Shown in pieces: positions 4,202-32,102 of a stretch of 64,000 nt of DNA. The notes under the pieces are model-generated. The model had not been told where the DNA came from and did not search any database. It saw only the letters and a program-made list of their open reading frames with translations. Numbering within the stretch: the stretch's first letter is position 1; the number at the start of each line of letters is the position of its first letter. Source of the DNA: a phage; the NCBI GenBank assembly GCA_017686895.1, contig GCA_017686895.1_4521.1; one strand, given 5' to 3'. Made by a program: the position numbers and the translations under genes.

Positions 4202-4837
4202 ATGAAAACTACACCAATCACTATCGCTATTGACGCAATCGTAAAACAAGCTTCTTCTTTGGCTACTATGGCCAAAGTAATTAGTCAAAACCCTGCTCGT
4301 TATAATGCTATTCTAGAAACTCTTCGACGCCCTGGACTGAGTAATTATGAAAGCCGAGTAATTATTACAGGTGTTGGTAAGAACGCTAATATCGCAACTA
4401 AAGCTTCCGAGACTTTTGCTTCACTAGGTATTCCTAGCATGTATTTGAACACCGGGCATTATTCTCATGGCGACGCAGGGTTTATTGCACCTAATGATGT
4501 ATTAGTTCACATCAGTCGTTCTGGTAAGACTGAAGAAATGATAGGTGTTGCTAAACATCTTCGTATGATTCGTCCTCAGGTTAAACAGATTCTGTTACAT
4601 TGTAACCCTGACATTCCGCAAGAATACGAAGCTCTTTTTGATTATACGTTCTGTACAGGCATCGCGGTAGAGGTTGATGAGAATTCTCTGGCTCCGACCA
4701 TGTCCACTACATTGTTGTTAGCGCTTATCGATACGTTTGCTATCAACCTTTCGTCTGAACGTGGATTTACCTCTAATGACTTCCTTAAGTTCCACCCTGG
4801 TGGTGCACTAGGTGCCATGTTACGAGGCGAACAATGA
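4202..4837 (+). CDS. SIS-domain sugar-phosphate isomerase, arabinose-5-phosphate isomerase (KdsD/GutQ)-like
   Basis: SIS motifs VGKNANIATKASETF, HGDAGF, VLVHISRSGKTEE resemble KdsD-type API rather than GmhA. Confidence 0.7.
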   Translation: MKTTPITIAIDAIVKQASSLATMAKVISQNPARYNAILETLRRPGLSNYESRVIITGVGKNANIATKASETFASLGIPSMYLNTGHYSHGDAGFIAPNDVLVHISRSGKTEEMIGVAKHLRMIRPQVKQILLHCNPDIPQEYEALFDYTFCTGIAVEVDENSLAPTMSTTLLLALIDTFAINLSSERGFTSNDFLKFHPGGALGAMLRGEQ

Positions 4838-4977
4838 AAGCAATAACAATAGGACTTTTACTATTGATGCTTGTCATGACTATCTACTGGAGCTTAACGG
4901 CTCCAGTAATGATTCCGACTCTTATAATCGGATGGATTATGATTGGACTACAAACAAAGTATGAATGCTTTAACTAG
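4834..4977 (+). CDS. Small hydrophobic protein (47 aa), not in ORF track
   Basis: ATG overlaps the upstream TGA (ATGA coupling); translation MKAITIGLLLLMLVMTIYWSLTAPVMIPTLIIGWIMIGLQTKYECFN is almost entirely membrane-like. Confidence 0.35.
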   Translation: MKAITIGLLLLMLVMTIYWSLTAPVMIPTLIIGWIMIGLQTKYECFN

Positions 4978-5018
4978 AATAGTGTACAATACACCTACTT
5001 ACCAATGAGGACCACAAC

Positions 5019-6704
5019 ATGAAAAAAGCTGTTATTCTTGGTGCTGGACTGGCAACTCGTTTGTATCCAATAACGCACCATATTCCTAAGGTGCTTGTTA
5101 ACTATAAACAAGACACTATTCTGAGCAATTTGTATACAATTTATTCTGACCTTGGTGCAGATGAAATTATTGTAGTAGTTCATTCAAAATTTGTTGAAAC
5201 TGTTCGAGCTTATTGTGAGCAAGAAGGGTTCAATGTGACTATTCGTACAGTTGATGAAGCGTATGGTTCTGCTTATGCTCTTGCTAAATTATACAAAGAT
5301 TTAGATGGCCATAACGTAATTGTTAACTGGTGTGATATTATTCCTGATTTTGGTTCATGGTCTTGGAATGTTAACGCAATCTATGTTAAGGGTGATGAAT
5401 GTCGATATAATTTCGATGGTGAAAATATCACTAACGTAGGTTCAACAGGCGGTAATGTTGTAGGAATTTATCAGTTCAAAGACTGGGAATTCTATATGGG
5501 TTCTACTGATGAGGAAATTCATGAATACTGCAAAGGGCGTGATTTCGTAGAATTCCTTTACGGCAGTGCATTCAATAAATCAGAGCTTATGAATCTAATT
5601 GATTTAGGTGATATGCCTAAACTTGAAAAAGCTCATGAAGTTCGTGAACTTAATCGTAGTTTTAATGCAGTTGAAATTGGTGAAGAAACTGTAACTAAAT
5701 TCGCATTAACCGAACAGGGACGAGCTCTTCAGAAAGATGAGATTTCGTGGTATCTTAAAGTGAAATCAGATTCAGTTCCTCAGTTAGTTTCTGTTAATGA
5801 AAATAACTTTGAAATGGAACGCATTAAAGGTAAGCCAGCATTTGAATATATTAAATCCAAATCAAGTCTTGCTCGTCCACAAATTGTTGATGCAATTTTA
5901 GATGCACTGAAATTCAGCACAGACACTTATTTTGTAAGTCCTGAAACTGTTCGTCGTGATTTCACTAAAGAATTCTATACGAAAGTTATTGATCGTTGTG
6001 AAAGCATTCAACCATTGATTGATTCATTTGGTAAAATCACACATGTGAACTACACTAAGATTGGACGTCTGAAGCCAATGCTGAAACAAGCTTTAGAACA
6101 CCTTATTCGTTATCATAACCGTTCTCAGGGACAGTACTCTGTTATTCATGGTGACCCGAACTTCAGTAATACTATGATTACTGATAACGGCGAAGTCAAG
6201 TTTATCGACCCTCGTGGATATTTTGGCGAAACCAAGATTTACGGGCCAAAATTGTACGATGAAGCTAAAGTGCTTTATGCTGTTTCAGGTTATGATGAAT
6301 TCAATGCTAATCCGACCTGGGGACAGTTTACTATTGATGAAACAACTTGTAATGTGACTATTAACATCAATCCATTAATTTACAAATATGGAAAGATGAG
6401 TTCGTTTAACGAGTATCATCATTTGGCGGTGGCAATTATCTGGATTGCATTAGGTGGTTATTTCAAGAATAATCCACTTAAAGCGGTAGCCGCATATTAT
6501 AAAGGTATGGAACTTCTGACTAAGCAATTACGCAACATGGGCCGTGTACTTCAAGACGGCTCTATTAGTTATGACGTAGCAGAACCTGTAACGGCTACTC
6601 TGATTACAAAAAATCCTGGTAAATGGGTACTAACTGATAAAGAAACTGGTGTTTCCTATCGTCCAATCGGTGGCGATATCACTCATCAATGGGAACGAAT
6701 CTAA
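5019..6704 (+). CDS. Bifunctional sugar-1-phosphate nucleotidyltransferase / APH-like sugar kinase
   Basis: N-terminal ILGAGLATRL nucleotidyltransferase motif; C-terminal HGDPNFSN...IDPRG kinase motifs (aminoglycoside/choline kinase fold). Confidence 0.7.
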   Translation: MKKAVILGAGLATRLYPITHHIPKVLVNYKQDTILSNLYTIYSDLGADEIIVVVHSKFVETVRAYCEQEGFNVTIRTVDEAYGSAYALAKLYKDLDGHNVIVNWCDIIPDFGSWSWNVNAIYVKGDECRYNFDGENITNVGSTGGNVVGIYQFKDWEFYMGSTDEEIHEYCKGRDFVEFLYGSAFNKSELMNLIDLGDMPKLEKAHEVRELNRSFNAVEIGEETVTKFALTEQGRALQKDEISWYLKVKSDSVPQLVSVNENNFEMERIKGKPAFEYIKSKSSLARPQIVDAILDALKFSTDTYFVSPETVRRDFTKEFYTKVIDRCESIQPLIDSFGKITHVNYTKIGRLKPMLKQALEHLIRYHNRSQGQYSVIHGDPNFSNTMITDNGEVKFIDPRGYFGETKIYGPKLYDEAKVLYAVSGYDEFNANPTWGQFTIDETTCNVTININPLIYKYGKMSSFNEYHHLAVAIIWIALGGYFKNNPLKAVAAYYKGMELLTKQLRNMGRVLQDGSISYDVAEPVTATLITKNPGKWVLTDKETGVSYRPIGGDITHQWERI

Positions 6705-7090
6705 TGCACCGTGTAGAAAACATGCTTAATCTTTGTTTTGATGTCGATGATTGTATAACAGAGTGGAATAACAATCGTGATTACGTGAACTTCAAACCAG
6801 ACGTCGAAATGGTGTCTGCCATTAATGCCCTGTATGATGCAGGGCATACCATAACGCTTTACACTGCTCGTGGTATGAAGTCAGTAGGTCCTGGTCGTAT
6901 AGCAATTGACATTCTCCCAAGTCTGATTCAGAACTTGGCAAACATTGGCTTGAAGTACCATAATTTGCTAACACATAAACCAGTATATGATTGGATTATC
7001 GACGACAAAGCTATGCGTCCTGACGAATTCAAAGCTCTTATGAATAAAGGCGAATTCGAAACATTTAAATCATATAAACCGAATCTATAA
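6704..7090 (+). CDS. HAD-superfamily phosphatase-like protein
   Basis: FDVDDCIT (DxD motif I), LYTAR, K...DWIIDDK; TAATG overlap with upstream gene; track start 6689 is an alternative. Confidence 0.5.
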   Translation: MHRVENMLNLCFDVDDCITEWNNNRDYVNFKPDVEMVSAINALYDAGHTITLYTARGMKSVGPGRIAIDILPSLIQNLANIGLKYHNLLTHKPVYDWIIDDKAMRPDEFKALMNKGEFETFKSYKPNL

Positions 7091-7136
7091 TAATTTAAGT
7101 AAGACCTGCAAAAACCATCGCATCAATTAACGCGAG

Positions 7137-8306
7137 ATGCAAAAAATGAATACTTTTAAAATCGGAACGAATTTTGATTTAGCTCTTCTTGATAAAATCG
7201 TAGAGCTCAATAAAACCTATCCTAATAGCTTGATAAACGAAGTATATGGCTCTACAAGAGAAATGGCTTTTGTAGCAGCCAGACCTGATTTTAGGCTTCC
7301 TGACGTTGACAAAAAGATGTTAGAAGATTACGTTAAACGTTGTAACGAATTAGGTATTTGCTTTAACTATACACTCAACACGATAAATCCTGGTTCAAAA
7401 AGAGAACTAGTTGAGTGGAAGAAGAAAGCTATTCAGGATTATGTTCAGTATCTTTGGTCAATAGGCGTATGGCGTATTACTATCGCTAACCCTGTTGTTA
7501 TGGAAATTGTTCGTGAAGTCAATAAAGATATTGAGATTGAAGTTTCAACAATTCTACATGTCGATGCGGTAACTCAAATCAAATACTTACATGACCAATA
7601 TAACATCAAAAAGGTCTGTTGCGGAATTCATAAGAACCGTTCAGTTTCTTTCCTGAAGCGTGCAGCAGAGTTTTGCAATAAGAACAATATAATATTTGAA
7701 GTTCTTGTAAATGAGTTCTGTTCTAATGCTGGTAAAGGGTATACAACACATTGTAGTTATCGTGACTCTTGCTATATTTTCCATAGTACTGATGTTACAG
7801 CTGATGATGCTAAATCCTTAAATGGATATCCAATGCAACACTGCATTAAAGCTCGTGATACAGACCCATTTAACTGGTTGAGAACTCGTTTTGTTCGTCC
7901 TCAAGATTTGAAACTTTATAATGATATTGGTATCACTCAATTCAAAGTTTCAGGACGTACAGGTAGCACAGACTACATTTTGAAAGTTCTTGAAGCATAC
8001 GCTTCTGAAAAGTTTGAAGGTAATTTGTTAGAACTGTGGAAGCCTTTAGAGACTATTTTCACTCTTGAAAATGAGACTGAGTTTTCACATACAGTAAATA
8101 TTGAAACCTCTTTGTTAGATGGCTTTTTAGAAAAAAGGTGGTTCAGACATCCAGATTTTGATTGTGCTAATGAAATCTGTGGGTCAACGTGTACATATTG
8201 TGAAAGGTATTATAAACGTCAATTATCTAAAAACGGGTTAGCAGAAAACTCCATATCTATTATTGATATAACTAACTCTGATGACGCTTTGAGGTACCCG
8301 GAATGA
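7137..8306 (+). CDS. Cys-rich protein of unknown function; weak resemblance to peptidase U32-family TIM-barrel proteins
   Basis: 389-aa ORF in the cassette; motifs NEVYGS, FKVSGRTGSTDY and clustered Cys (CxxxxGxGxxxxC, CANEICGSTCTYC); family assignment from memory only. Confidence 0.5.
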   Translation: MQKMNTFKIGTNFDLALLDKIVELNKTYPNSLINEVYGSTREMAFVAARPDFRLPDVDKKMLEDYVKRCNELGICFNYTLNTINPGSKRELVEWKKKAIQDYVQYLWSIGVWRITIANPVVMEIVREVNKDIEIEVSTILHVDAVTQIKYLHDQYNIKKVCCGIHKNRSVSFLKRAAEFCNKNNIIFEVLVNEFCSNAGKGYTTHCSYRDSCYIFHSTDVTADDAKSLNGYPMQHCIKARDTDPFNWLRTRFVRPQDLKLYNDIGITQFKVSGRTGSTDYILKVLEAYASEKFEGNLLELWKPLETIFTLENETEFSHTVNIETSLLDGFLEKRWFRHPDFDCANEICGSTCTYCERYYKRQLSKNGLAENSISIIDITNSDDALRYPE

Positions 8307-8542
8307 TTTCTAGAAAAAGTTTTAATTATAAACTTAACGAAGAGATTTTGACTATGAAACTGAACACTAACGAACAAATTCTTAAAAAGGCCCTTATGGG
8401 CCTGTTTGAAACCAAAGCGGCTAAAGTGATTAAAGAACCTGTTCAATTGGAATACTACACTGATGCATTCCTTCATAGTGTTCTTGGAAGTATAGATTCT
8501 GAAGCTTTACGTTATATCAACATTGTCAAGAAATTCAAATAA
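8303..8542 (+). CDS. Hypothetical protein
   Basis: 79-aa ORF, ATGA overlap with upstream gene. Confidence 0.45.
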   Translation: MISRKSFNYKLNEEILTMKLNTNEQILKKALMGLFETKAAKVIKEPVQLEYYTDAFLHSVLGSIDSEALRYINIVKKFK

Positions 8543-8565
8543 GCTTTATGAATTGAGTATATAAT
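8541..8565 (+). promoter_or_regulatory. Candidate middle promoter (MotA-box-like AAGCTTTAT plus TATAAT)
   Basis: MotA-like box about 12 bp upstream of TATAAT (8560-8565), 20 nt before ATG 8585. Confidence 0.3.
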
Positions 8566-8584
8566 AAATTGTATTGAGGTAAAT

Positions 8585-9301
8585 ATGGGAAAACATAACA
8601 CAATGAAATATATCAAAGCCGCAGATTTTCAAACCGCATTTAAAGCAGTCAATCGTGAAATTTTAGAAAACCCCGAATTCGTAACTGATTCTCGTATTGG
8701 ACGTTGTAATGAAATTGGGTCTATGACAGTAGTTGTTGACACTCCATCATCATTCAAAATGACCGACCCACGTATTAACCGCATCTCTTATGAATATGCC
8801 GAAGACTTCTGGAAGTTTATGATTTCTGGTGGTACCAACGCAGAAGAAGCGTTTAAGGCATATCCTAATGTCGCTAAATTTATTTCTAAACCAAAATCAG
8901 ATGTTTTGCCGGCGAACTTCAACACTTTCTATGGTCCTCGCATTGCGGCCCAATTACCAACTCTTCTAAAAGAACTTAAAGAAAAACCTAACTCTCGAAG
9001 AGTTGTGTTCCAAATTCTAGAAAGTTCTGATCAGGCTTTGCTTGATTCGGACGAAACACTTGAATATCCATGTACTGACTCAGTAACTTATTATATTCGT
9101 GATGGTAAGCTTTATACCCACTGTCATATGCGTTCTCAGAACTGTGCTGTTGTTATGCAGTTGGATTTTTATCTCCAAGGAAAATTACTTCATTATATCG
9201 CTAACGAATGCGGTGTAGAAGTTGGTGATTATACTCATACCATGGTAAGTGCCCATGTGTTTGAACGTGATTTTGATTATGTTAAAGGATTCCTTGACTA
9301 A
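8585..9301 (+). CDS. 42: Thymidylate-synthase-fold deoxycytidylate hydroxymethylase-like enzyme (gene 42 position)
   Basis: TS-fold motifs NSRRVVFQI, YPCTDSVTYYIRDG (catalytic Cys), Asp at the pyrimidine-specificity position (QLDFY) as in dCMP hydroxymethylase; more divergent from recalled T4 gp42 than neighbouring core genes. Confidence 0.6.
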   Translation: MGKHNTMKYIKAADFQTAFKAVNREILENPEFVTDSRIGRCNEIGSMTVVVDTPSSFKMTDPRINRISYEYAEDFWKFMISGGTNAEEAFKAYPNVAKFISKPKSDVLPANFNTFYGPRIAAQLPTLLKELKEKPNSRRVVFQILESSDQALLDSDETLEYPCTDSVTYYIRDGKLYTHCHMRSQNCAVVMQLDFYLQGKLLHYIANECGVEVGDYTHTMVSAHVFERDFDYVKGFLD

Positions 9302-10200
9302 TGGCTATTTTCCGCGTACCAATCTTGAGTATGCGGTCTTATGAAACTGGACAGTATGCTATCCTTAAGGATGGCAACTTCCAACTTCATTTGCACCGTG
9401 CTAATCCAGGTGATGTGATTACATATCCACGTAATGCATCTGATATTAAAGAATGCGAACGTCTTTTCCCAGAATTTAAGTTTGTTCCATTATGGTATAA
9501 AGATAACGCGTATAACACTCGTAAATATTTCTGGTCTGAAAATGAATTTGTGGTTGATTCATTAATTGCTTATTATGATTGTGATTTTCTAATCACAGAT
9601 ATCACCGGATATGACGGCGCTTTTGATGTGGAATTCAATTTCAATATCACTGCAGACCCTAATAAACCACGTTTTTATATTGACGAATTCTTAAAAACTG
9701 ATATGTTGTCGGTTAATCGTTCACTTCAAACTACTGTGTTGAATGAACGTCAAAAAGAAGTGCTGGTTAACGCAGGTGCAGATGGTAATAAGATTATCGT
9801 AACGCAGAAAGTTATACGTCCTTCCATCATGCAGCGTCTTGTAGGTGATTTGGCTCCTATTCATCTAGATGGTATTTTTCATCCATTTCGAATTAGTGAC
9901 CCGTGCTATCGTTTTGAACAAGTGGTTGAATGTGCAATTCAATTAGGCCAACCGCTTTATATAACCGATCCAAATAATAGCTTCGACAGAAATAAGTATC
10001 CTGAAGAAGCATTGATTCGAATTTTTAAACCAACTAAAACTGAGTACTATCAAATTCTTAAAGGACGTCCGAAGATTCAATATTTCGAAAATCCTGAAGA
10101 AGTATTCCATCCAGGTCTTGGTGAGTTCATCTACTTTAATGCTTTAATTTCTTCGCCGTATAATATACCTAAATATGAAGATGTCGTAATCGAGGAATAA
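9301..10200 (+). CDS. Hypothetical protein (occupies the T4 beta-glucosyltransferase position)
   Basis: 299-aa ORF, TAATG coupled to the hydroxymethylase gene; no recognisable motif. Confidence 0.55.
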   Translation: MAIFRVPILSMRSYETGQYAILKDGNFQLHLHRANPGDVITYPRNASDIKECERLFPEFKFVPLWYKDNAYNTRKYFWSENEFVVDSLIAYYDCDFLITDITGYDGAFDVEFNFNITADPNKPRFYIDEFLKTDMLSVNRSLQTTVLNERQKEVLVNAGADGNKIIVTQKVIRPSIMQRLVGDLAPIHLDGIFHPFRISDPCYRFEQVVECAIQLGQPLYITDPNNSFDRNKYPEEALIRIFKPTKTEYYQILKGRPKIQYFENPEEVFHPGLGEFIYFNALISSPYNIPKYEDVVIEE

Positions 10201-10201
10201 A

Positions 10202-10750
10202 ATGGCTAAAATTATTTTAGTAGATGGCCCGGATAATGCTGGTAAAACAACTTTCATTAATGACATAATGGAAATTAGTGAAAGATATGTAAAGATTGAT
10301 TTCCCTAAACGAACAGTTGATGGACGTTTCGATGTTAAGTCTCGAAATGAAGTTGGCTGTTTCGAAACTATGTTGAATTATTTAGACCCTACTAAGATTT
10401 ATCTATTAGACCGTGGATATATTAGTAACTGGGTTTATGGACGTATTCGACAAGATGCGGACTCGGTTCTTGACGTTTATGAACAGGATTATGTTCGTCT
10501 TTGCCAAAACCATGATGTGTTCACAATTATTTTAACACGTAACGAAATGACTGAAAGTTTTGAAGACGACCTTATTACTTTGTCTTCATTCGGTTTTAAT
10601 ACAGTAATTTCACATTTTGAAGAGTTTGCAATTCATAACGAAATCCAAACGTATCAATTACTTAATCATGATGGTGCTAACAAAGTTATAGGATTTAATG
10701 CAAGCGAACGTAATAATTTGATTACAGAAATCATCAAATGGGCTCGTTAA
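10202..10750 (+). CDS. P-loop NTPase, nucleotide/nucleoside kinase-like
   Basis: Walker A GPDNAGKTT near N-terminus; 182 aa. Confidence 0.55.
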   Translation: MAKIILVDGPDNAGKTTFINDIMEISERYVKIDFPKRTVDGRFDVKSRNEVGCFETMLNYLDPTKIYLLDRGYISNWVYGRIRQDADSVLDVYEQDYVRLCQNHDVFTIILTRNEMTESFEDDLITLSSFGFNTVISHFEEFAIHNEIQTYQLLNHDGANKVIGFNASERNNLITEIIKWAR

Positions 10751-10767
10751 GAGCCATTTAAAGTTTT

Positions 10768-10795
10768 AAATGCTGTATAACCCTTAGTATATAAT
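10768..10795 (+). promoter_or_regulatory. Candidate middle promoter for uvsX (MotA-box-like AAATGCTGTA plus TATAAT)
   Basis: Box 12 bp upstream of TATAAT 10790-10795. Confidence 0.4.
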
Positions 10796-10848
10796 CATCT
10801 TATCTTTTAAACATGAGTAAAATATAATGATGCCTATGGAAAAATACA

Positions 10849-12021
10849 ATGTCTGATTTAAAATCTCGTCTGATTAAAGCTTCTACTTCTAAAATGACTG
10901 CAGACTTGACTAAGTCTAAGCTGTTTAATAATCGTGATGAAGTCCCTACTCGTATTCCAATGTTGAATATTGCACTAGGTGGTGCACTGAATGCAGGGTT
11001 GCAATCAGGCTTAACTATTTTTGCTGCTCCTTCTAAACATTTTAAAACGTTGTTTGGGCTGACCATGGTTGCAGCATATATGAAGAAATATAAAGATGCA
11101 ATCTGTTTGTTTTATGACTCAGAATTCGGTGCTTCAGAATCTTACTTCCGTTCGATGGGTGTTGATTTAGACCGTGTAGTTCATACTCCGATTCAATCCG
11201 TCGAACAACTTAAAGTTGATATGACTAATCAGCTTGACGCGATTGAACGCGGCGATAAAGTTATTATCTTTATCGATTCAATCGGTAATACTGCATCTAA
11301 GAAAGAAACCGAAGATGCGTTGAACGAGAAAGTTGTAGGTGATATGTCTCGTGCTAAGGCACTTAAATCTCTTTTCCGTATTGTGACTCCTTATCTGACT
11401 ATTAAAGATATTCCGTGTGTTGCAATTAACCATACTGCAATGGAAATTGGCGGATTGTATCCTAAAGAGATTATGGGCGGTGGTACAGGTATTCTTTATT
11501 CCGCCAACACGGTATTTTTTATCTCTAAACGTCAGGTTAAAGAAGGTACAGAATTGACCGGTTATGACTTCACGTTGAAAGCAGAAAAATCTCGTACAGT
11601 TAAAGAGAAATCTACTTTCCCGATCACGGTTAATTTCGACGGTGGTATCGACCCATTCAGTGGCTTGTTAGAAATGGCAACTGAAATCGGTTTTGTGGTT
11701 AAGCCTAAAGCTGGTTGGTATGCTCGCGAATTCCTTGACGAAGAAACAGGTGAAATGATTCGTGAAGAAAAATCATGGCGTGCTAAAGCTACTGATTGTG
11801 TAGAATTCTGGGGACCTTTGTTTAAACATAAGCCTTTCCGTGACGCAATTGAAACTAAATATAAACTAGGTGCTATCTCTTCTATTAAAGAAGTTGATGA
11901 CGCTGTTAACGACCTTATTAATTGCAAAGCAACAACTAAAGTTCCGGTTAAAACTTCTAATGCTCCGTCTGCAGCAGATATAGAAAACGACCTTGACGAA
12001 ATGGAAGATTTCGATGAATAA
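10849..12021 (+). CDS. uvsX: Recombinase UvsX (RecA-like)
   Basis: 390 aa; syntenic with T4 uvsX; RecA-type Walker motifs. Confidence 0.92.
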   Translation: MSDLKSRLIKASTSKMTADLTKSKLFNNRDEVPTRIPMLNIALGGALNAGLQSGLTIFAAPSKHFKTLFGLTMVAAYMKKYKDAICLFYDSEFGASESYFRSMGVDLDRVVHTPIQSVEQLKVDMTNQLDAIERGDKVIIFIDSIGNTASKKETEDALNEKVVGDMSRAKALKSLFRIVTPYLTIKDIPCVAINHTAMEIGGLYPKEIMGGGTGILYSANTVFFISKRQVKEGTELTGYDFTLKAEKSRTVKEKSTFPITVNFDGGIDPFSGLLEMATEIGFVVKPKAGWYAREFLDEETGEMIREEKSWRAKATDCVEFWGPLFKHKPFRDAIETKYKLGAISSIKEVDDAVNDLINCKATTKVPVKTSNAPSAADIENDLDEMEDFDE

Positions 12022-18735: not shown

Positions 18736-18823
18736 AATATCTCCTTAGTTACCTATTATTTATTACGCTTTATAAAATTAATGTTAGAATTAACTCTCTT
18801 ATACTGAATTGAAAGGAAAAATA

Positions 18824-19345
18824 ATGGCGCACTTTAATGAATGTTCACAACTTATTTCTGGTGTTGATAAAGCAGAAGAAGTTTATTTTAATGCTCTGAT
18901 TCACGAAGATAAAGACCCACTTCAGGTAATGCTTGATATGCAGAAATCTTTACAGGTTCGTCTGGCAAATGACAAGCCTGAACATAACAAACATCCTGAT
19001 GAATTGGCTACTGCTGGTGATGTTGTTGATTGGCTGCGTAATCAGAAAGATTATATTGATGATGAATTCCGTGAACTGTTGACTTCACTTGGTGGTATGA
19101 GCAATGGTGAAAAAGCCGCCAGCAGTGTATGGAAGCCTTGGAAAGCACAACATGCTGAATATCGAAATCGTCGTATCGATGAACTGTCTCCTGAAGACCA
19201 GCTTGAAATTAAATTTGAGATGATTGATATTCTTCATTTCGTTCTGAATATGTTCCAAGGTCTGGGTCTTTCTGCTGAAGAAATCTTTAAACTTTACTAC
19301 TTGAAAAACCAACACAACTTTGAACGTCAGGATAATGGTTACTAA
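18824..19345 (+). CDS. 56: dCTPase/dUTPase gp56 (MazG-like)
   Basis: Starts MAHFNEC like T4 gp56; DKDPLQVMLDMQ, FRELLTSLG, EEIFKLYYLKN conserved. Confidence 0.85.
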   Translation: MAHFNECSQLISGVDKAEEVYFNALIHEDKDPLQVMLDMQKSLQVRLANDKPEHNKHPDELATAGDVVDWLRNQKDYIDDEFRELLTSLGGMSNGEKAASSVWKPWKAQHAEYRNRRIDELSPEDQLEIKFEMIDILHFVLNMFQGLGLSAEEIFKLYYLKNQHNFERQDNGY

Positions 19346-29141: not shown

Positions 29142-30959
29142 ATGATTAAAAACGAAATTAAGGTATTGTCAGATGTAGAACATATTAAGAAACGTAGTGG
29201 TATGTATATTGGTTCTTCGGCTAAAGAAGCACATGAGCGTTTTTTGTTTGGTAAATATCAACAAGTTGAATATGTTCCTGGTCTGGTTAAATTAATCGAT
29301 GAGATTATTGACAACTCGGTTGATGAAGCTATTCGTACATCATTTAAGTTTGCAAATAAAATTGATGTGCAAATTAAAAATAATCAAGTTTCGGTGGAAG
29401 ATAACGGACGTGGTATTCCTCAAGGTTTAGTTACTGACCAAACAGGTGAACAAATTCCTGGGCCTGTAGCAGCCTGGACTATTCCAAAGGCCGGTGGTAA
29501 CTTTGGTGATGATTCTGAACGCAAGACTGGTGGTATGAACGGCGTCGGGAGTAGTTTAACTAATATCTTCTCTACGTTGTTTACAGGCATCACGTCAGAT
29601 GGCGAAAATGAAATCACTGTTAACTGTTCAAACGGAATGGAAAACAAATCATGGTCTTCTAAGAAATCTAAAGGTAAAGGCACTAAAGTAATCTTCACTC
29701 CTGATTTCACTTCATTTGAAGAGAATAATTTATCTCAAATTTATTTAGATATTACTTTAGACCGACTTCAAACATTGGCAGTTGTTTATCCTGATATCAA
29801 GTTCACATTTAATGGTAAAAAGGTTGATGGTAATTTTAAACGATTTGCTAAACAATTTGGTGAAGATAACATCATTCAAGAAAATGATAAAGTCTCTATA
29901 GCATTCACAACATCACCAGATGGCTTCCGTCATTTAACTTATGTGAATAACATCCATACTAAAAATGGTGGTCATCATGTTGAATGTGTAATGGATGATA
30001 TTTGCGAACATCTTTTACCGGGTATTAAAAAGAAATATAAGGGTATTGAAGTCACTAAAGCTCGTGTTAAAGAATGCCTCACAATGTTGATGTTTATTAG
30101 AGACATGAGCAATATGCGTTTTGATTCTCAGACTAAAGAACGTTTAACGTCAACGTATGGTGATATTCGTAATCATATCCAATTAGATGCTAAGAAAATT
30201 GCTCAGGCACTTCTTAAAAACGAAGCCTTGATTATGCCTATTGTTGAAGCAGCATTAGCTCGTAAATTGGCAGCAGAAAAGGCTGCAGAAACTAAAGCAG
30301 CTAAAAAGGCAACTAAAGCTAAGGTTCATAAGCATATTAAAGCTAACCGATGTGGTAAAGATGCAGATACGACATTGTTTTTAACAGAAGGTGATTCGGC
30401 AATTGGTTATCTCATTGATGTTCGTGACCGTGAACTACACGGTGGATTCCCATTACGTGGTAAGGTGATGAATAGCTGGGGTATGTCATATGCTGATATG
30501 ATGAAGAACAAAGAGCTCTTTGATATCTGTGCTATCACAGGTCTTATTCTTGGTGAAAAGGCAGAGAATACGAACTATCGTAATATTGCAATTATGACTG
30601 ATGCAGATCACGACGGTCTTGGAAGTATCTATCCGGCTTTGCTTGCTTTCTTTAGTAATTGGCCTGAATTGTTTGAACAAGGACGTATTCGCTTTGTTAA
30701 AACGCCTGTAATTATTGCACAAATTGGCAAAACTCAAAAATGGTTTTATACTGTAGCTGAGTATGAAGAAGTTAAAGATACACTGCCTAAGCATAGTATT
30801 CGATACATCAAGGGATTAGGCTCCCTTGAAAAGTCAGAATATCGTGAAATGATTCAGAACCCTGTGTACGACGTAGTTAAACTTCCTGAAAATTGGAAAG
30901 AACTCTTTGAAATGTTGATGGGTGATGATTCAGAACTTCGTAAAGAATGGATGTCCTAA
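29142..30959 (+). CDS. 39: DNA topoisomerase II large subunit gp39 (GyrB-like, single unsplit ORF)
   Basis: 605 aa with GHKL ATPase (VEDNGRGIP) and Toprim (LTEGDSA, DADHDG) in one frame; T4 splits this into 39 and 60. Confidence 0.92.
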   Translation: MIKNEIKVLSDVEHIKKRSGMYIGSSAKEAHERFLFGKYQQVEYVPGLVKLIDEIIDNSVDEAIRTSFKFANKIDVQIKNNQVSVEDNGRGIPQGLVTDQTGEQIPGPVAAWTIPKAGGNFGDDSERKTGGMNGVGSSLTNIFSTLFTGITSDGENEITVNCSNGMENKSWSSKKSKGKGTKVIFTPDFTSFEENNLSQIYLDITLDRLQTLAVVYPDIKFTFNGKKVDGNFKRFAKQFGEDNIIQENDKVSIAFTTSPDGFRHLTYVNNIHTKNGGHHVECVMDDICEHLLPGIKKKYKGIEVTKARVKECLTMLMFIRDMSNMRFDSQTKERLTSTYGDIRNHIQLDAKKIAQALLKNEALIMPIVEAALARKLAAEKAAETKAAKKATKAKVHKHIKANRCGKDADTTLFLTEGDSAIGYLIDVRDRELHGGFPLRGKVMNSWGMSYADMMKNKELFDICAITGLILGEKAENTNYRNIAIMTDADHDGLGSIYPALLAFFSNWPELFEQGRIRFVKTPVIIAQIGKTQKWFYTVAEYEEVKDTLPKHSIRYIKGLGSLEKSEYREMIQNPVYDVVKLPENWKELFEMLMGDDSELRKEWMS

Positions 30960-31001: not shown

Positions 31002-32102
31002 ATGAAAGTTATGTTTATCCCATCTCGTGCAGTCCCATTTAATCCTGACCGTGTACAAGGTGGTCTTGAAGCAGTACATTTAAATGTGTTGAAATATCTT
31101 GTGTCCATCGGTGCTGATATTGATTATATCGGCTTTGATAATGACGTGTTTGGTGATTGGAAAGTTACACACCATCCTGTCGGCCATCTGACTAAATTCA
31201 GTCTAGGTATGAGTTATACTATGGCTCGTAAGATTGTTGAACTAGCCGGCATCCATGAATACGATTTTGTTGTTACTATGGAACCGACTAAACTAACCGT
31301 TCAGGCAATTAAAGACGCAGGTCTCTCTAAAGTTCATAAGAATTTTATGGCAACACCATTTGAACCGGTATCTCGTGGCATTGTTCAAATTTGGGACCAG
31401 ACTATTCAAATTCATAAGAATGGTGGTAAGAGTTATGCTCCTACTAAAGCCTTCCGTGAATTTGAACGCAAATATTGTTATATGACTTCAGGTCTGACTG
31501 ACAAAATTGATTATGATTATTGGCGAGCAAATCCGTTGTTTGAAGCCGAAGATTATCCGGTTATTTGTTTGAATGAGAAACCTGAAGTTCTTCCGGCGAC
31601 TGATCTGATTATTAGTGCACAACGTTATGACACTAAAATGCGTCGTACTGATGTTGCTCTTGAAGCGATTAAAGCACTAGGCGAAAATGGTGTAGGATAC
31701 TGTCCTAGTAAATGGGCGCCACCGGCTAAGTATCCTGTTATTATTGATGCTCCACATAGTGAAATCATGGAACGTCTTAAAACAGCTAAAGCACTTATCA
31801 ATACGTGTCCTGACACAGGTACGGTAGAGAATAGTTCTATTGAAGCCATCTCTAAAGGTGTCCCTGTAATCCAGTTAGTTTTTAAGGATTATCCTCATGC
31901 GACATTTGAATACGACCCAGATACTGTGCGTGTAGAAATTGATTCCTCTACTCCTAAGAAAGAAGTAGTTGCGCTTTACACAAAAGCTGTATTAGAATTC
32001 ACTGACACATACGAAGCTCGAGTTAAACGTGCTGAAGCCGTATGGAAGAAGTATAACCGAGATGCAGTTGTTGCGATGTGGGATAAAATCTTCACAGCGT
32101 AA
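31002..32102 (+). CDS. GT-B-type glycosyltransferase, candidate hmC-DNA arabinosyltransferase
   Basis: 366 aa; N-terminal DRVQGGLEAVHL and C-terminal TGTVENSSIEAISKGVPVI (E-x7-E-like); lies between 39 and rIIA. Confidence 0.7.
   Translation: MKVMFIPSRAVPFNPDRVQGGLEAVHLNVLKYLVSIGADIDYIGFDNDVFGDWKVTHHPVGHLTKFSLGMSYTMARKIVELAGIHEYDFVVTMEPTKLTVQAIKDAGLSKVHKNFMATPFEPVSRGIVQIWDQTIQIHKNGGKSYAPTKAFREFERKYCYMTSGLTDKIDYDYWRANPLFEAEDYPVICLNEKPEVLPATDLIISAQRYDTKMRRTDVALEAIKALGENGVGYCPSKWAPPAKYPVIIDAPHSEIMERLKTAKALINTCPDTGTVENSSIEAISKGVPVIQLVFKDYPHATFEYDPDTVRVEIDSSTPKKEVVALYTKAVLEFTDTYEARVKRAEAVWKKYNRDAVVAMWDKIFTA

Follow-up and report, generated by a model that had tools for sequence, protein, structure and literature searches.

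The window, a 64,000-nucleotide stretch of phage DNA, originates from a Mosigvirus. Between 8585 and 10750 it carries three coupled genes on the plus strand (8585-9301, 9301-10200 and 10202-10750) which, as described in the initial annotation, stand at the place of genes 42 and beta-gt in the 43-imm-42-beta-gt-segA-uvsX stretch of T4. The start of the second gene, which encodes a protein of 299 amino acids, overlaps the stop codon of the first (TAATG at 9298-9302), the coupling that had been noted earlier, and a single A separates its own TAA stop from the ATG of the third gene. These genes, their neighbors and the other genes of the proposed pathway are:

4202-4837, plus strand: arabinose-5-phosphate isomerase (RB69 gp55); Pfam SIS, KpsF/GutQ and KdsD models, phrog_5670
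5019-6704, plus strand: bifunctional sugar-1-phosphate nucleotidyltransferase/kinase (HY126 AfhE, RB69 gp52:53); Pfam NTP_transferase and weak kinase matches
6704-7090, plus strand: HAD-type phosphatase (HY126 AfhF, RB69 gp51); TIGR01689 capsule biosynthesis phosphatase; PMC13326640
7137-8306, plus strand: U32-family, putative Fe-S protein (RB69 gp50); Pfam Peptidase_U32
8303-8542, plus strand: ORF of 79 amino acids; phrog_8601; its start overlaps the stop of the U32 gene (ATGA)
8585-9301, plus strand: 5-hydroxy-dCMP synthase by homology, TS fold, flavin/O2-dependent (RB69 gp48 / HY126 homolog), 238 amino acids
9301-10200, plus strand: predicted first arabinosyltransferase (RB69 gp46:47), GT-B fold, 299 amino acids
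10202-10750, plus strand: P-loop nucleotide kinase, assigned by its TMPK fold (RB69 gp45), 182 amino acids
18809-19345, plus strand: dCTP/dUTP pyrophosphatase-like protein, T4 gp56-type; phrog_173 NTP pyrophosphohydrolase, dUTPase family
31002-32102, plus strand: second arabinosyltransferase (RB69 gp3; HY126 GT, PDB 9iqz); phrog_8302; between topoisomerase gene 39 and rIIA

Sequence comparison showed that the three module proteins are 97-100% identical to RB69 gp48, gp46:47 and gp45 and to their counterparts in phage HY126. At the DNA level the region is 98.3% identical to RB69 ORF045c-048c, many Mosigvirus genomes match it at 98-99%, and the same genes occur in the same order in RB69 and HY126. 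No essential difference from the RB69/HY126 pathway was found and the diagnostic residues are equal, whereas in the RB69 reference record the genes for the 299-residue protein (here called GT1) and for the AfhE homolog are split by frameshifts, both being intact ORFs in the window. The modified nucleoside of RB69 DNA is beta-Araf-3-alpha-Araf-5-hydroxy-dC, and the pathway leading to it, encoded by RB69 gp45-gp55 and gp3 or the Afh genes of HY126, was described by Lee et al. (NAR 2026, PMC13326640); for a further Mosigvirus the modification was independently confirmed (PMC13390438). We assign the trio at 8585-10750 to the arabinosyl-5-hydroxycytosine pathway of RB69-like phages (Mosigvirus), of which it would form the core; the probability of about 0.88 applies to what the whole module is and not to its sub-steps. 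The suspicion of a nucleotide- or DNA-modification module unlike that of T4 was therefore well placed, and the module is already known, having been published in 2025-2026. The arabinosyl-5-hydroxycytosine pathway of RB69/HY126 is reportedly also the subject of He et al. (Nat Chem Biol 2026) and Mahler et al. (Cell Host Microbe 2025). The triad of TS homolog, GT1 and kinase is kept in 50+ loci, among them some whose GT1 is as little as 25% identical. A scan for promoters and terminators between 4000 and 12200 gave fewer matches than shuffled sequence, or no more.

The product of 8585-9301 matches Pfam Thymidylat_synt (PF00303; E 1.9e-15, 57 bits against a cutoff of 24.3) and, in a PDB sequence search, many TS structures; 9iqc, 9ir2 and 9iqu are the structures of its counterparts. 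It shares 232 of 238 residues with 9iqc, which is the HY126 protein, and 235 of 238 with RB69 gp48. High full-length identity to T4 gp42 was looked for, and the alignment gave 25% over 218 residues (E 3e-13), less than the 68% between the UvsX protein of the window and T4 UvsX, as had been expected from the sequence. Residues E160, C163, N186 and D194 correspond to L143E, C146, D169N and N177D of E. coli ThyA; among these, the catalytic Cys (C163, ThyA C146) and the cytosine-specifying Asp (D194, ThyA N177) had been correctly recognized. At ThyA positions 143/146/169/177, T4 gp42 has D/C/D/D and ThyA itself L/C/D/N. An Asn at the position of ThyA Asp169 is the published diagnostic of 5-hydroxy-dCMP synthases (PMC13326640), and this N/D signature (L143E, C146, D169N, N177D) is present in the TS homolog upstream of GT1 in 50 of the 52 loci that have one. 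The window protein thus combines a TS domain with the diagnostic residues of 5-hydroxy-dCMP synthases, and it has neither the Asp at 169 nor the clear gp42 identity of a T4 gp42-type enzyme.

The hydroxymethylase activity originally proposed for this enzyme did not hold, because of the Asn at ThyA position 169 and the near-identity to the HY126 and RB69 enzymes. By its sequence the protein is a dCMP 5-hydroxylase and not a hydroxymethylase, an activity shown for proteins that are 97-99% identical. RB69 gp48, named "5hodCMP synthase", depends on a flavin and O2 for the 5-hydroxylation of dCMP and binds FMN; 18O2 label enters 5hodC, and gp48 together with a dNMP kinase leads to 5hodC in DNA (PMC13326640). 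A divergent dCMP hydroxymethylase, with the sugar carried by hydroxymethylcytosine as in the 2018 model, would share with T4 gp42 the fold, the catalytic Cys and the cytosine-specifying Asp, and the first report on RB69 DNA described arabinosyl-hmC (PMC6024577). This is very improbable and appears already refuted: Asn replaces the Asp169 of ThyA and T4 gp42 in this protein and in 50 of 52 relatives, NMR/MS and 18O2 labelling revealed an ether link from 5-hydroxycytosine (PMC13326640), and the 2018 assignment has been termed erroneous (PMC13390438).

The initial annotation saw no recognizable motif in the 299-residue protein. This stands at the sequence level, with no Pfam, NCBIfam or PDB sequence match and no homology to T4 beta-GT by BLASTP (best E 3.7), but not at the level of the fold, which is GT-B with two Rossmann domains and resembles retaining GT4 transferases and not nucleotidyltransferases. 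GT1 is orthologous to RB69 gp46:47 (179 of 182 and 116 of 116 residues identical) and, in agreement with synteny, its gene lies directly 3' of that for the 5hodCMP synthase. The predicted folds of GT1 and the kinase agree with Table 1 of PMC13326640, and from its modelled fold GT1 is predicted to put alpha-Araf on the 5-OH of 5-hydroxycytosine. In vitro activity of GT1 has not been reported, which counts against this assignment, as does the report that the homologous 300-residue TH1_063 of Thanatos is a UDP-xylose pyrophosphorylase, which in vitro converted UTP and xylose-1-phosphate to UDP-xylose (PMC12838424). By analogy, GT1 would not be a transferase but would produce the sugar donor as a UDP-pentose pyrophosphorylase. 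We consider this improbable, in view of the GT-B fold, of the AfhE homolog at 5019-6704 that already covers the pyrophosphorylase step, and of loci in which GT1 is kept while sugar-activation genes are missing nearby (L082, L083, L084, L087, L090 and L100).

The third protein was proposed to be kinase-like, and this is borne out by the P-loop GPDNAGKTT at residues 9-17, a DR motif and a thymidylate-kinase fold; there was no Pfam match, and a PDB sequence search yielded nothing useful. Public records carry the name 'thymidylate kinase', and the fold would suit a plain dTMP kinase or a general-purpose dNMP kinase with no part in the modification. Such a role is unlikely: the score with TIGR00041 is 15.8 bits against a cutoff of 83, below the dTMP-kinase equivalog level, T4-like phages already possess gp1, and the strict linkage of the family to GT1, or else to TS-type modifiers of cytosine, extends to very distant phages. 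We infer that the substrate is 5-hydroxy-dCMP or its arabinosylated form.

In T4, a TS-fold enzyme modifies C5 of dCMP, a kinase acts next, modified dCTP is used instead of dCTP, and the hydroxyl group is glycosylated. The module in the window has the same genome position and logic as T4 gp42, gp1 and the glucosyltransferases, but the product carries a hydroxyl instead of a hydroxymethyl group, the cofactor is flavin plus O2 instead of folate, the residue at ThyA-169 is Asn instead of Asp, the sugar is arabinofuranose, whose donor the phage makes itself, and GT1 lacks sequence similarity to T4 beta-GT. In the proposed pathway, Cys163 of the TS-fold enzyme would attack C6 of dCMP, whereupon a loosely bound flavin and O2, used in place of methylene-tetrahydrofolate, would hydroxylate C5 to give 5-hydroxy-dCMP. 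By analogy with T4, and from Table 1 of PMC13326640, the dCMP itself is presumably supplied by the protein encoded at 18809-19345, probably the counterpart of RB69 gp28. A nucleotide kinase would then convert 5-hydroxy-dCMP to the diphosphate and the host NDP kinase would form the triphosphate, after which the phage polymerase would insert 5-hydroxy-dCTP instead of dCTP. The first phosphorylation was shown for a T4 gp1-type kinase, and RB69 gp159 phosphorylates 5hodCMP (PMC13326640); we infer that the kinase at 10202-10750 performs the same or a closely related phosphorylation. The GT-B enzyme GT1 would transfer arabinofuranose to the 5-OH from UDP-Araf, a donor supplied by the isomerase, the bifunctional kinase/uridylyltransferase and the phosphatase encoded upstream, and the transferase at 31002-32102 would add a second arabinose. 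Identity to the HY126 proteins is 542 of 562 residues for AfhE (5019-6704), which makes UDP-arabinofuranose (PMC13326640), and 128 of 128 for AfhF (6704-7090). The 31002-32102 protein matches 9iqz/9ir0 over its full length (E 2.4e-250), and its neighbor at 29142-30959 is gyrase-B-like.

That the kinase acts on 5-hydroxy-dCMP and that GT1 acts on DNA, taken jointly, has about an even chance. Several observations weigh against it. The GT1 and kinase genes lie one base apart, are adjacent in 53 of 58 loci, and are fused in a single ORF in L097 (GT1 residues 22-345, kinase 377-532), a fusion that fits a mononucleotide acceptor better than DNA. GT1 is acidic (pI 5.1), in contrast to the DNA-binding T4 beta-GT (pI 9.05). 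The individual transferases were inactive on 5hoC-DNA, in experiments that do not tell a mononucleotide from DNA as acceptor of the first arabinose, and the activity of gp159 on 5hodCMP makes the TMPK-fold kinase look redundant with the gp1-type enzyme (PMC13326640). These points would be explained by glycosylation before replication, a possible but doubtful order in which GT1 would arabinosylate 5-hydroxy-dCMP, the kinase would take ara-5hodCMP and the polymerase would insert ara-5hodCTP; the TMPK-fold kinase would then exist because a gp1-type kinase cannot handle the bulky ara-5hodCMP. However, the acceptor of the second and of the third arabinose is DNA (PMC13326640). Moreover, in a family of phages of about 50 kb the same kinase family is paired with a T4-gp42-type TS and no GT, in L198 even as a TS-kinase fusion, and a glycosylated substrate is therefore not needed. 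To our knowledge, all phage DNA glycosylations are post-replicative, which also counts against the earlier transfer. Given the GT1-kinase fusion and the acidic GT1, the choice between nucleotide and DNA as acceptor is worth testing.

The U32-family gene at 7137-8306 may be the real lead of this analysis and the part that could matter. Its product matches PF01136 (Peptidase_U32) with 42.2 bits against a cutoff of 22.4 and aligns by hhalign to TrhP/RlhA/UbiU/UbiV with 96.2% probability (E 2e-9); a PDB sequence search returned nothing useful. With TrhP, RlhA and UbiU/UbiV it shares the U32 domain, a GxxxFK(V/I)xGR motif and three of the four canonical cluster cysteines, but the phage proteins form a distinct clade (18 bits with the UbiU model). 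They contain ten invariant Cys residues. In comparison with the canonical [4Fe-4S] motif (CX6CX15CX3/4C or a variant), C206, C212 and C236 match the first three Cys of TrhP, and an Arg stands in the place of the fourth; C161, C180 and C195, likewise invariant, are close by, and a C-terminal invariant CX4CX3CX2C is additional to what known U32 hydroxylases possess. Table 1 of PMC13326640 gives the protein no more than the label 'sugar or heterocycle reductase'.

In related uncultured phages with no TS homolog in the sequence covered, the U32 protein takes its place; in IMGVR_UViG_3300035520_000516, for example, the sequence covered is the part after bases 1-2896. A gene for a DAHP synthase or DAHP synthase/chorismate mutase adjoins the U32 gene in L269, L086, L088 and L089, and three of these four proteins have a chorismate mutase domain. 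Chorismate mutase makes prephenate. The U32 proteins RlhA and TrhP, which hydroxylate C5 of C and U, need prephenate (PMC6599085, PMC10990095). Because the U32 protein replaces the TS homolog and a chorismate mutase adjoins it in some phages, an O2-independent cytosine hydroxylase is suggested. From these sequence data we lean towards the view that the U32 protein hydroxylates C5 of cytosine (or uracil), in a deoxynucleotide or in DNA, in a reaction that depends on prephenate and not on O2, whereas the substrates of TrhP/RlhA/UbiUV are RNA or quinone. A literature search, whose scope did not include He et al. 2026, found no published proposal of this kind.

Other assignments around the U32 gene were tried and rejected. 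The adjoining DAHP-family genes do not look like KDO8P synthases, which would have provided a link to arabinose-5-phosphate: they score 118-216 bits with DAHP models against 36-63 with KDO8P, and three of the four products have the chorismate mutase domain as well. Proteins of 265-288 amino acids upstream of the TS-less clusters are not hidden TS enzymes; they gave nothing against TS profiles and are SSB-type-like with acidic tails. Nothing pointed to a chorismate mutase in the 79-residue ORF: it has no family match and is shortened in HY126, to 40 amino acids; it was detected in only 5 of 58 related loci.

As a discovery the three-gene module carries little weight and is ordinary; it re-identifies a published pathway and corrects the common database label 'dCMP hydroxymethylase'. 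The pathway protects RB69-like phages from restriction enzymes, from the Brig1 glycosylase and from some CRISPR systems. In enterobacterial phages the U32 protein would back up the O2-requiring enzyme encoded at 8585-9301 in the anoxic gut, where full modification of the DNA would remain possible, and it would be the sole hydroxylase of many uncultured phages of low GC content. The TS homolog and the U32 protein would then parallel the aerobic/anaerobic pairs TrhO/TrhP and UbiIHF/UbiUV. If true, this would extend such hydroxylase pairs to viruses, provide a soluble nucleotide substrate for the long-sought in vitro assays of U32 enzymes, and explain how gut phages keep their DNA modification without O2.

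The three co-directional ORFs at 8585-10750 (238, 299 and 182 aa) form part of the already published arabinosyl-5-hydroxycytosine module and hold no novelty of their own. The 238-aa protein matches Pfam Thymidylat_synt, and the stop of this thymidylate synthase (TS) homolog overlaps the start of the 299-aa gene in a TAATG at 9298-9302, whereas the stop of the latter is separated by one base from the gene of the third protein, a putative TMPK-fold kinase. In T4, imm, 42, beta-gt and segA lie between 43 and uvsX; in the window the same interval holds an eight-gene cluster with the three genes at its end. The initial annotation had noted this coupling, a P-loop GPDNAGKTT in the third protein (found at residues 9-17), a second protein lacking recognisable motifs (sequence searches of Pfam, NCBIfam and PDB gave no matches), and a TS homolog that retains the catalytic Cys and the cytosine-specifying Asp (C163 and D194, the latter at the position of E. 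coli ThyA Asn177) and is less T4-like than UvsX (25% identity to T4 gp42 vs 68% for the UvsX pair). This observation is confirmed as real and correctly placed in every respect tested. The proposal of a module different from that of T4 is also right; the label hydroxymethylase is wrong, given Asn186 at the ThyA Asp169 position and the identity of 235/238 residues to RB69 gp48.

The window is from a Mosigvirus: some 150 genomes of RB69-like phages match bases 4500-11000 at 98-99% identity, and the three genes are 98.3% identical to RB69 ORF048c-045c. The kinase shares 181/182 residues with RB69 gp45, and the 299-aa protein (GT1, a predicted arabinosyltransferase) corresponds to ORF047c (179/182) and ORF046c (116/116) joined, a split attributed to sequencing error (PMC13326640). 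Compared to phage HY126, whose TS homolog has the sequence of PDB entries 9iqc, 9ir2 and 9iqu, the identities are 232/238, 297/299 and 181/182. Frameshifts in the RB69 reference record (NC_004928) split both GT1 and the bifunctional sugar enzyme (ORF053c/052c); both genes (9301-10200 and 5019-6704) are unbroken in the window. In many public records the TS homolog is annotated as 'dCMP hydroxymethylase' and the HAD phosphatase as 'phosphoheptose isomerase'. Judged by homology, the remaining pathway genes are likewise encoded in the window.

Pathway genes and the neighbouring U32 gene in the window
4202-4837, arabinose-5-P isomerase
5019-6704, AfhE-like bifunctional enzyme
6704-7090, AfhF-like phosphatase
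7137-8306, U32-family putative Fe-S protein (RB69 gp50) within the 5-hydroxycytosine cluster, Pfam 42 bits vs cutoff 22
18809-19345, gp56-type NTP pyrophosphatase
31002-32102, second transferase, E 2e-250 to PDB 9iqz

A 79-aa ORF at 8303-8542, whose first 4 bases overlap the end of the U32 gene, matched no known family; it is truncated to 40 aa in HY126 and was detected in 5 of 58 related loci.

RB69 DNA contains beta-Araf-3-alpha-Araf-5-hydroxy-dC, not arabinosyl-hmC (Lee et al. NAR 2026, PMC13326640). The same chemistry was confirmed for another Mosigvirus, and the 2018 hmC assignment was called erroneous (PMC13390438). The 5-hydroxy-dCMP synthase gp48 binds FMN; together with a gp1-type dNMP kinase it brings 5-hydroxy-dC into E. 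coli DNA, and this product is labelled by 18O2 (PMC13326640). He et al., as cited there, describe a crystal structure with bound flavin and a reaction in vitro that depends on O2. Asn at the ThyA Asp169 position is diagnostic of these synthases (PMC13326640). The window protein has E160, C163, N186 and D194, where T4 gp42 has D/C/D/D and ThyA L/C/D/N. Among 58 viral loci encoding a GT1 relative, 52 carry a TS homolog, in nearly all directly upstream of the GT1 relative, and 50 of these 52 have the Asn/Asp signature. One TS homolog adjoining a GT1 relative (locus L054:3615-4304) has Ser in place of this Asn, and its surroundings showed no kinase gene.

Single transferases showed no activity on 5hoC-DNA, and the level of the first arabinosylation was left undecided (PMC13326640). 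After profile iteration, the kinase adjoins GT1 relatives in 53 of the 58 loci, with contig ends explaining three of the five exceptions. In a family of ~50-kb uncultured phages, members of the same kinase family adjoin a T4-gp42-type TS and no transferase is present; one ORF (L198:2562-4091) fuses such a TS to the kinase. This pairing and fusion fit the simple reading that the kinase phosphorylates C5-modified dCMP. Another ORF (L097:5318-7003) fuses GT1 to a TMPK-like kinase, so that the two fusions connect all three enzyme families in the Rosetta-stone sense. The L097 fusion, the acidity of GT1 (pI 5.1 vs 9.05 for T4 beta-GT) and the seeming redundancy of the kinase with gp1 in T4-like phages keep alive a rather unlikely model in which the nucleotide would be the acceptor for GT1 and ara-5hodCMP the substrate of the kinase. 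A Thanatos GT1 homolog was reported to be a UDP-xylose pyrophosphorylase (PMC12838424), which agrees poorly with the predicted GT-B fold of GT1.

The U32 protein aligns to TrhP/RlhA/UbiU/UbiV with 96% probability in hhalign; its published entry reads 'sugar or heterocycle reductase', without discussion (PMC13326640). Characterised U32 proteins take part in O2-independent, prephenate-dependent hydroxylations, with targets including cytidine C5 (RlhA) and uridine C5 (TrhP, partnered by the O2-dependent TrhO) (PMC6599085, PMC6747719, PMC10990095). Ten Cys are invariant in the phage clade, among them a C-terminal CX4CX3CX2C, and three of the ten align with cluster ligands of TrhP.

U32 genes occur in 222 phage records. 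The host genera listed for 210 of these, and Shewanella, are facultative anaerobes, a set that covers all but six of the host genera; the host correlation is confounded by phylogeny. The ten commonest hosts do not include Acinetobacter, and in the phages of Acinetobacter and Pseudomonas that were examined, which encode TS, GT1, kinase and sugar genes, no U32 lies within 6 kb. Dhakavirus-like E. coli phages (L013-L017, L022) are an exception to the host pattern: they encode TS(N169), GT1, an AfhE homolog and a phosphatase, with the kinase upstream of TS, while U32 and arabinose-5-P isomerase are both absent from the 6 kb around.

Among uncultured phages, 23 loci with U32 show no Asn169-type TS within 10 kb, and in most of these contigs a TS may lie outside the stretch covered; a kinase is nearby in about 19 and a GT1 relative in 11. 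Six have the order kinase-GT1-U32, followed immediately by a PolIII-alpha gene in those with annotated flanks (L052, L057), with U32 in the slot of the TS homolog, whereas other members of the same family have a gp42-type TS and kinase at that place. One such contig has no TS-family ORF in 46,414 of its 49,310 bases. Within the ~50-kb family, L184, L224 and L232 have kinase-GT1-U32 without TS and most of L186-L262 a T4-gp42-type TS (D/C/D/D) with a TMPK-like kinase, a contrast that suggests a natural exchange of modules for cytosine modification.

Chorismate mutase yields prephenate, from which U32 hydroxylases take their oxygen. A DAHP synthase/chorismate mutase fusion lies immediately upstream of U32 in three loci and a DAHP synthase directly after it in one; these genes would be a phage-borne prephenate supply.

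DAHP-synthase-family genes directly beside U32 in uncultured phages
L086:8399-9430
L088:3-968
L089:7290-8354
L269:11145-11891

In two contigs of 466 kb (L266:9447-11086) and 60 kb (L267:8279-9858), U32 directly follows a dCMP deaminase gene, with TMPK and UDG-family genes near the pair, a setting that hints at 5-hydroxyuracil rather than 5-hydroxycytosine as the product.

Family, cysteines, distribution, TS replacement and prephenate-gene neighbours are good comparative evidence that the phage U32 protein may be an oxygen-independent pyrimidine C5-hydroxylase, to which we assign a probability of about 0.6. What the three-gene finding still offers lies in the putative steps of the kinase and GT1 and most of all in the U32 gene beside them.
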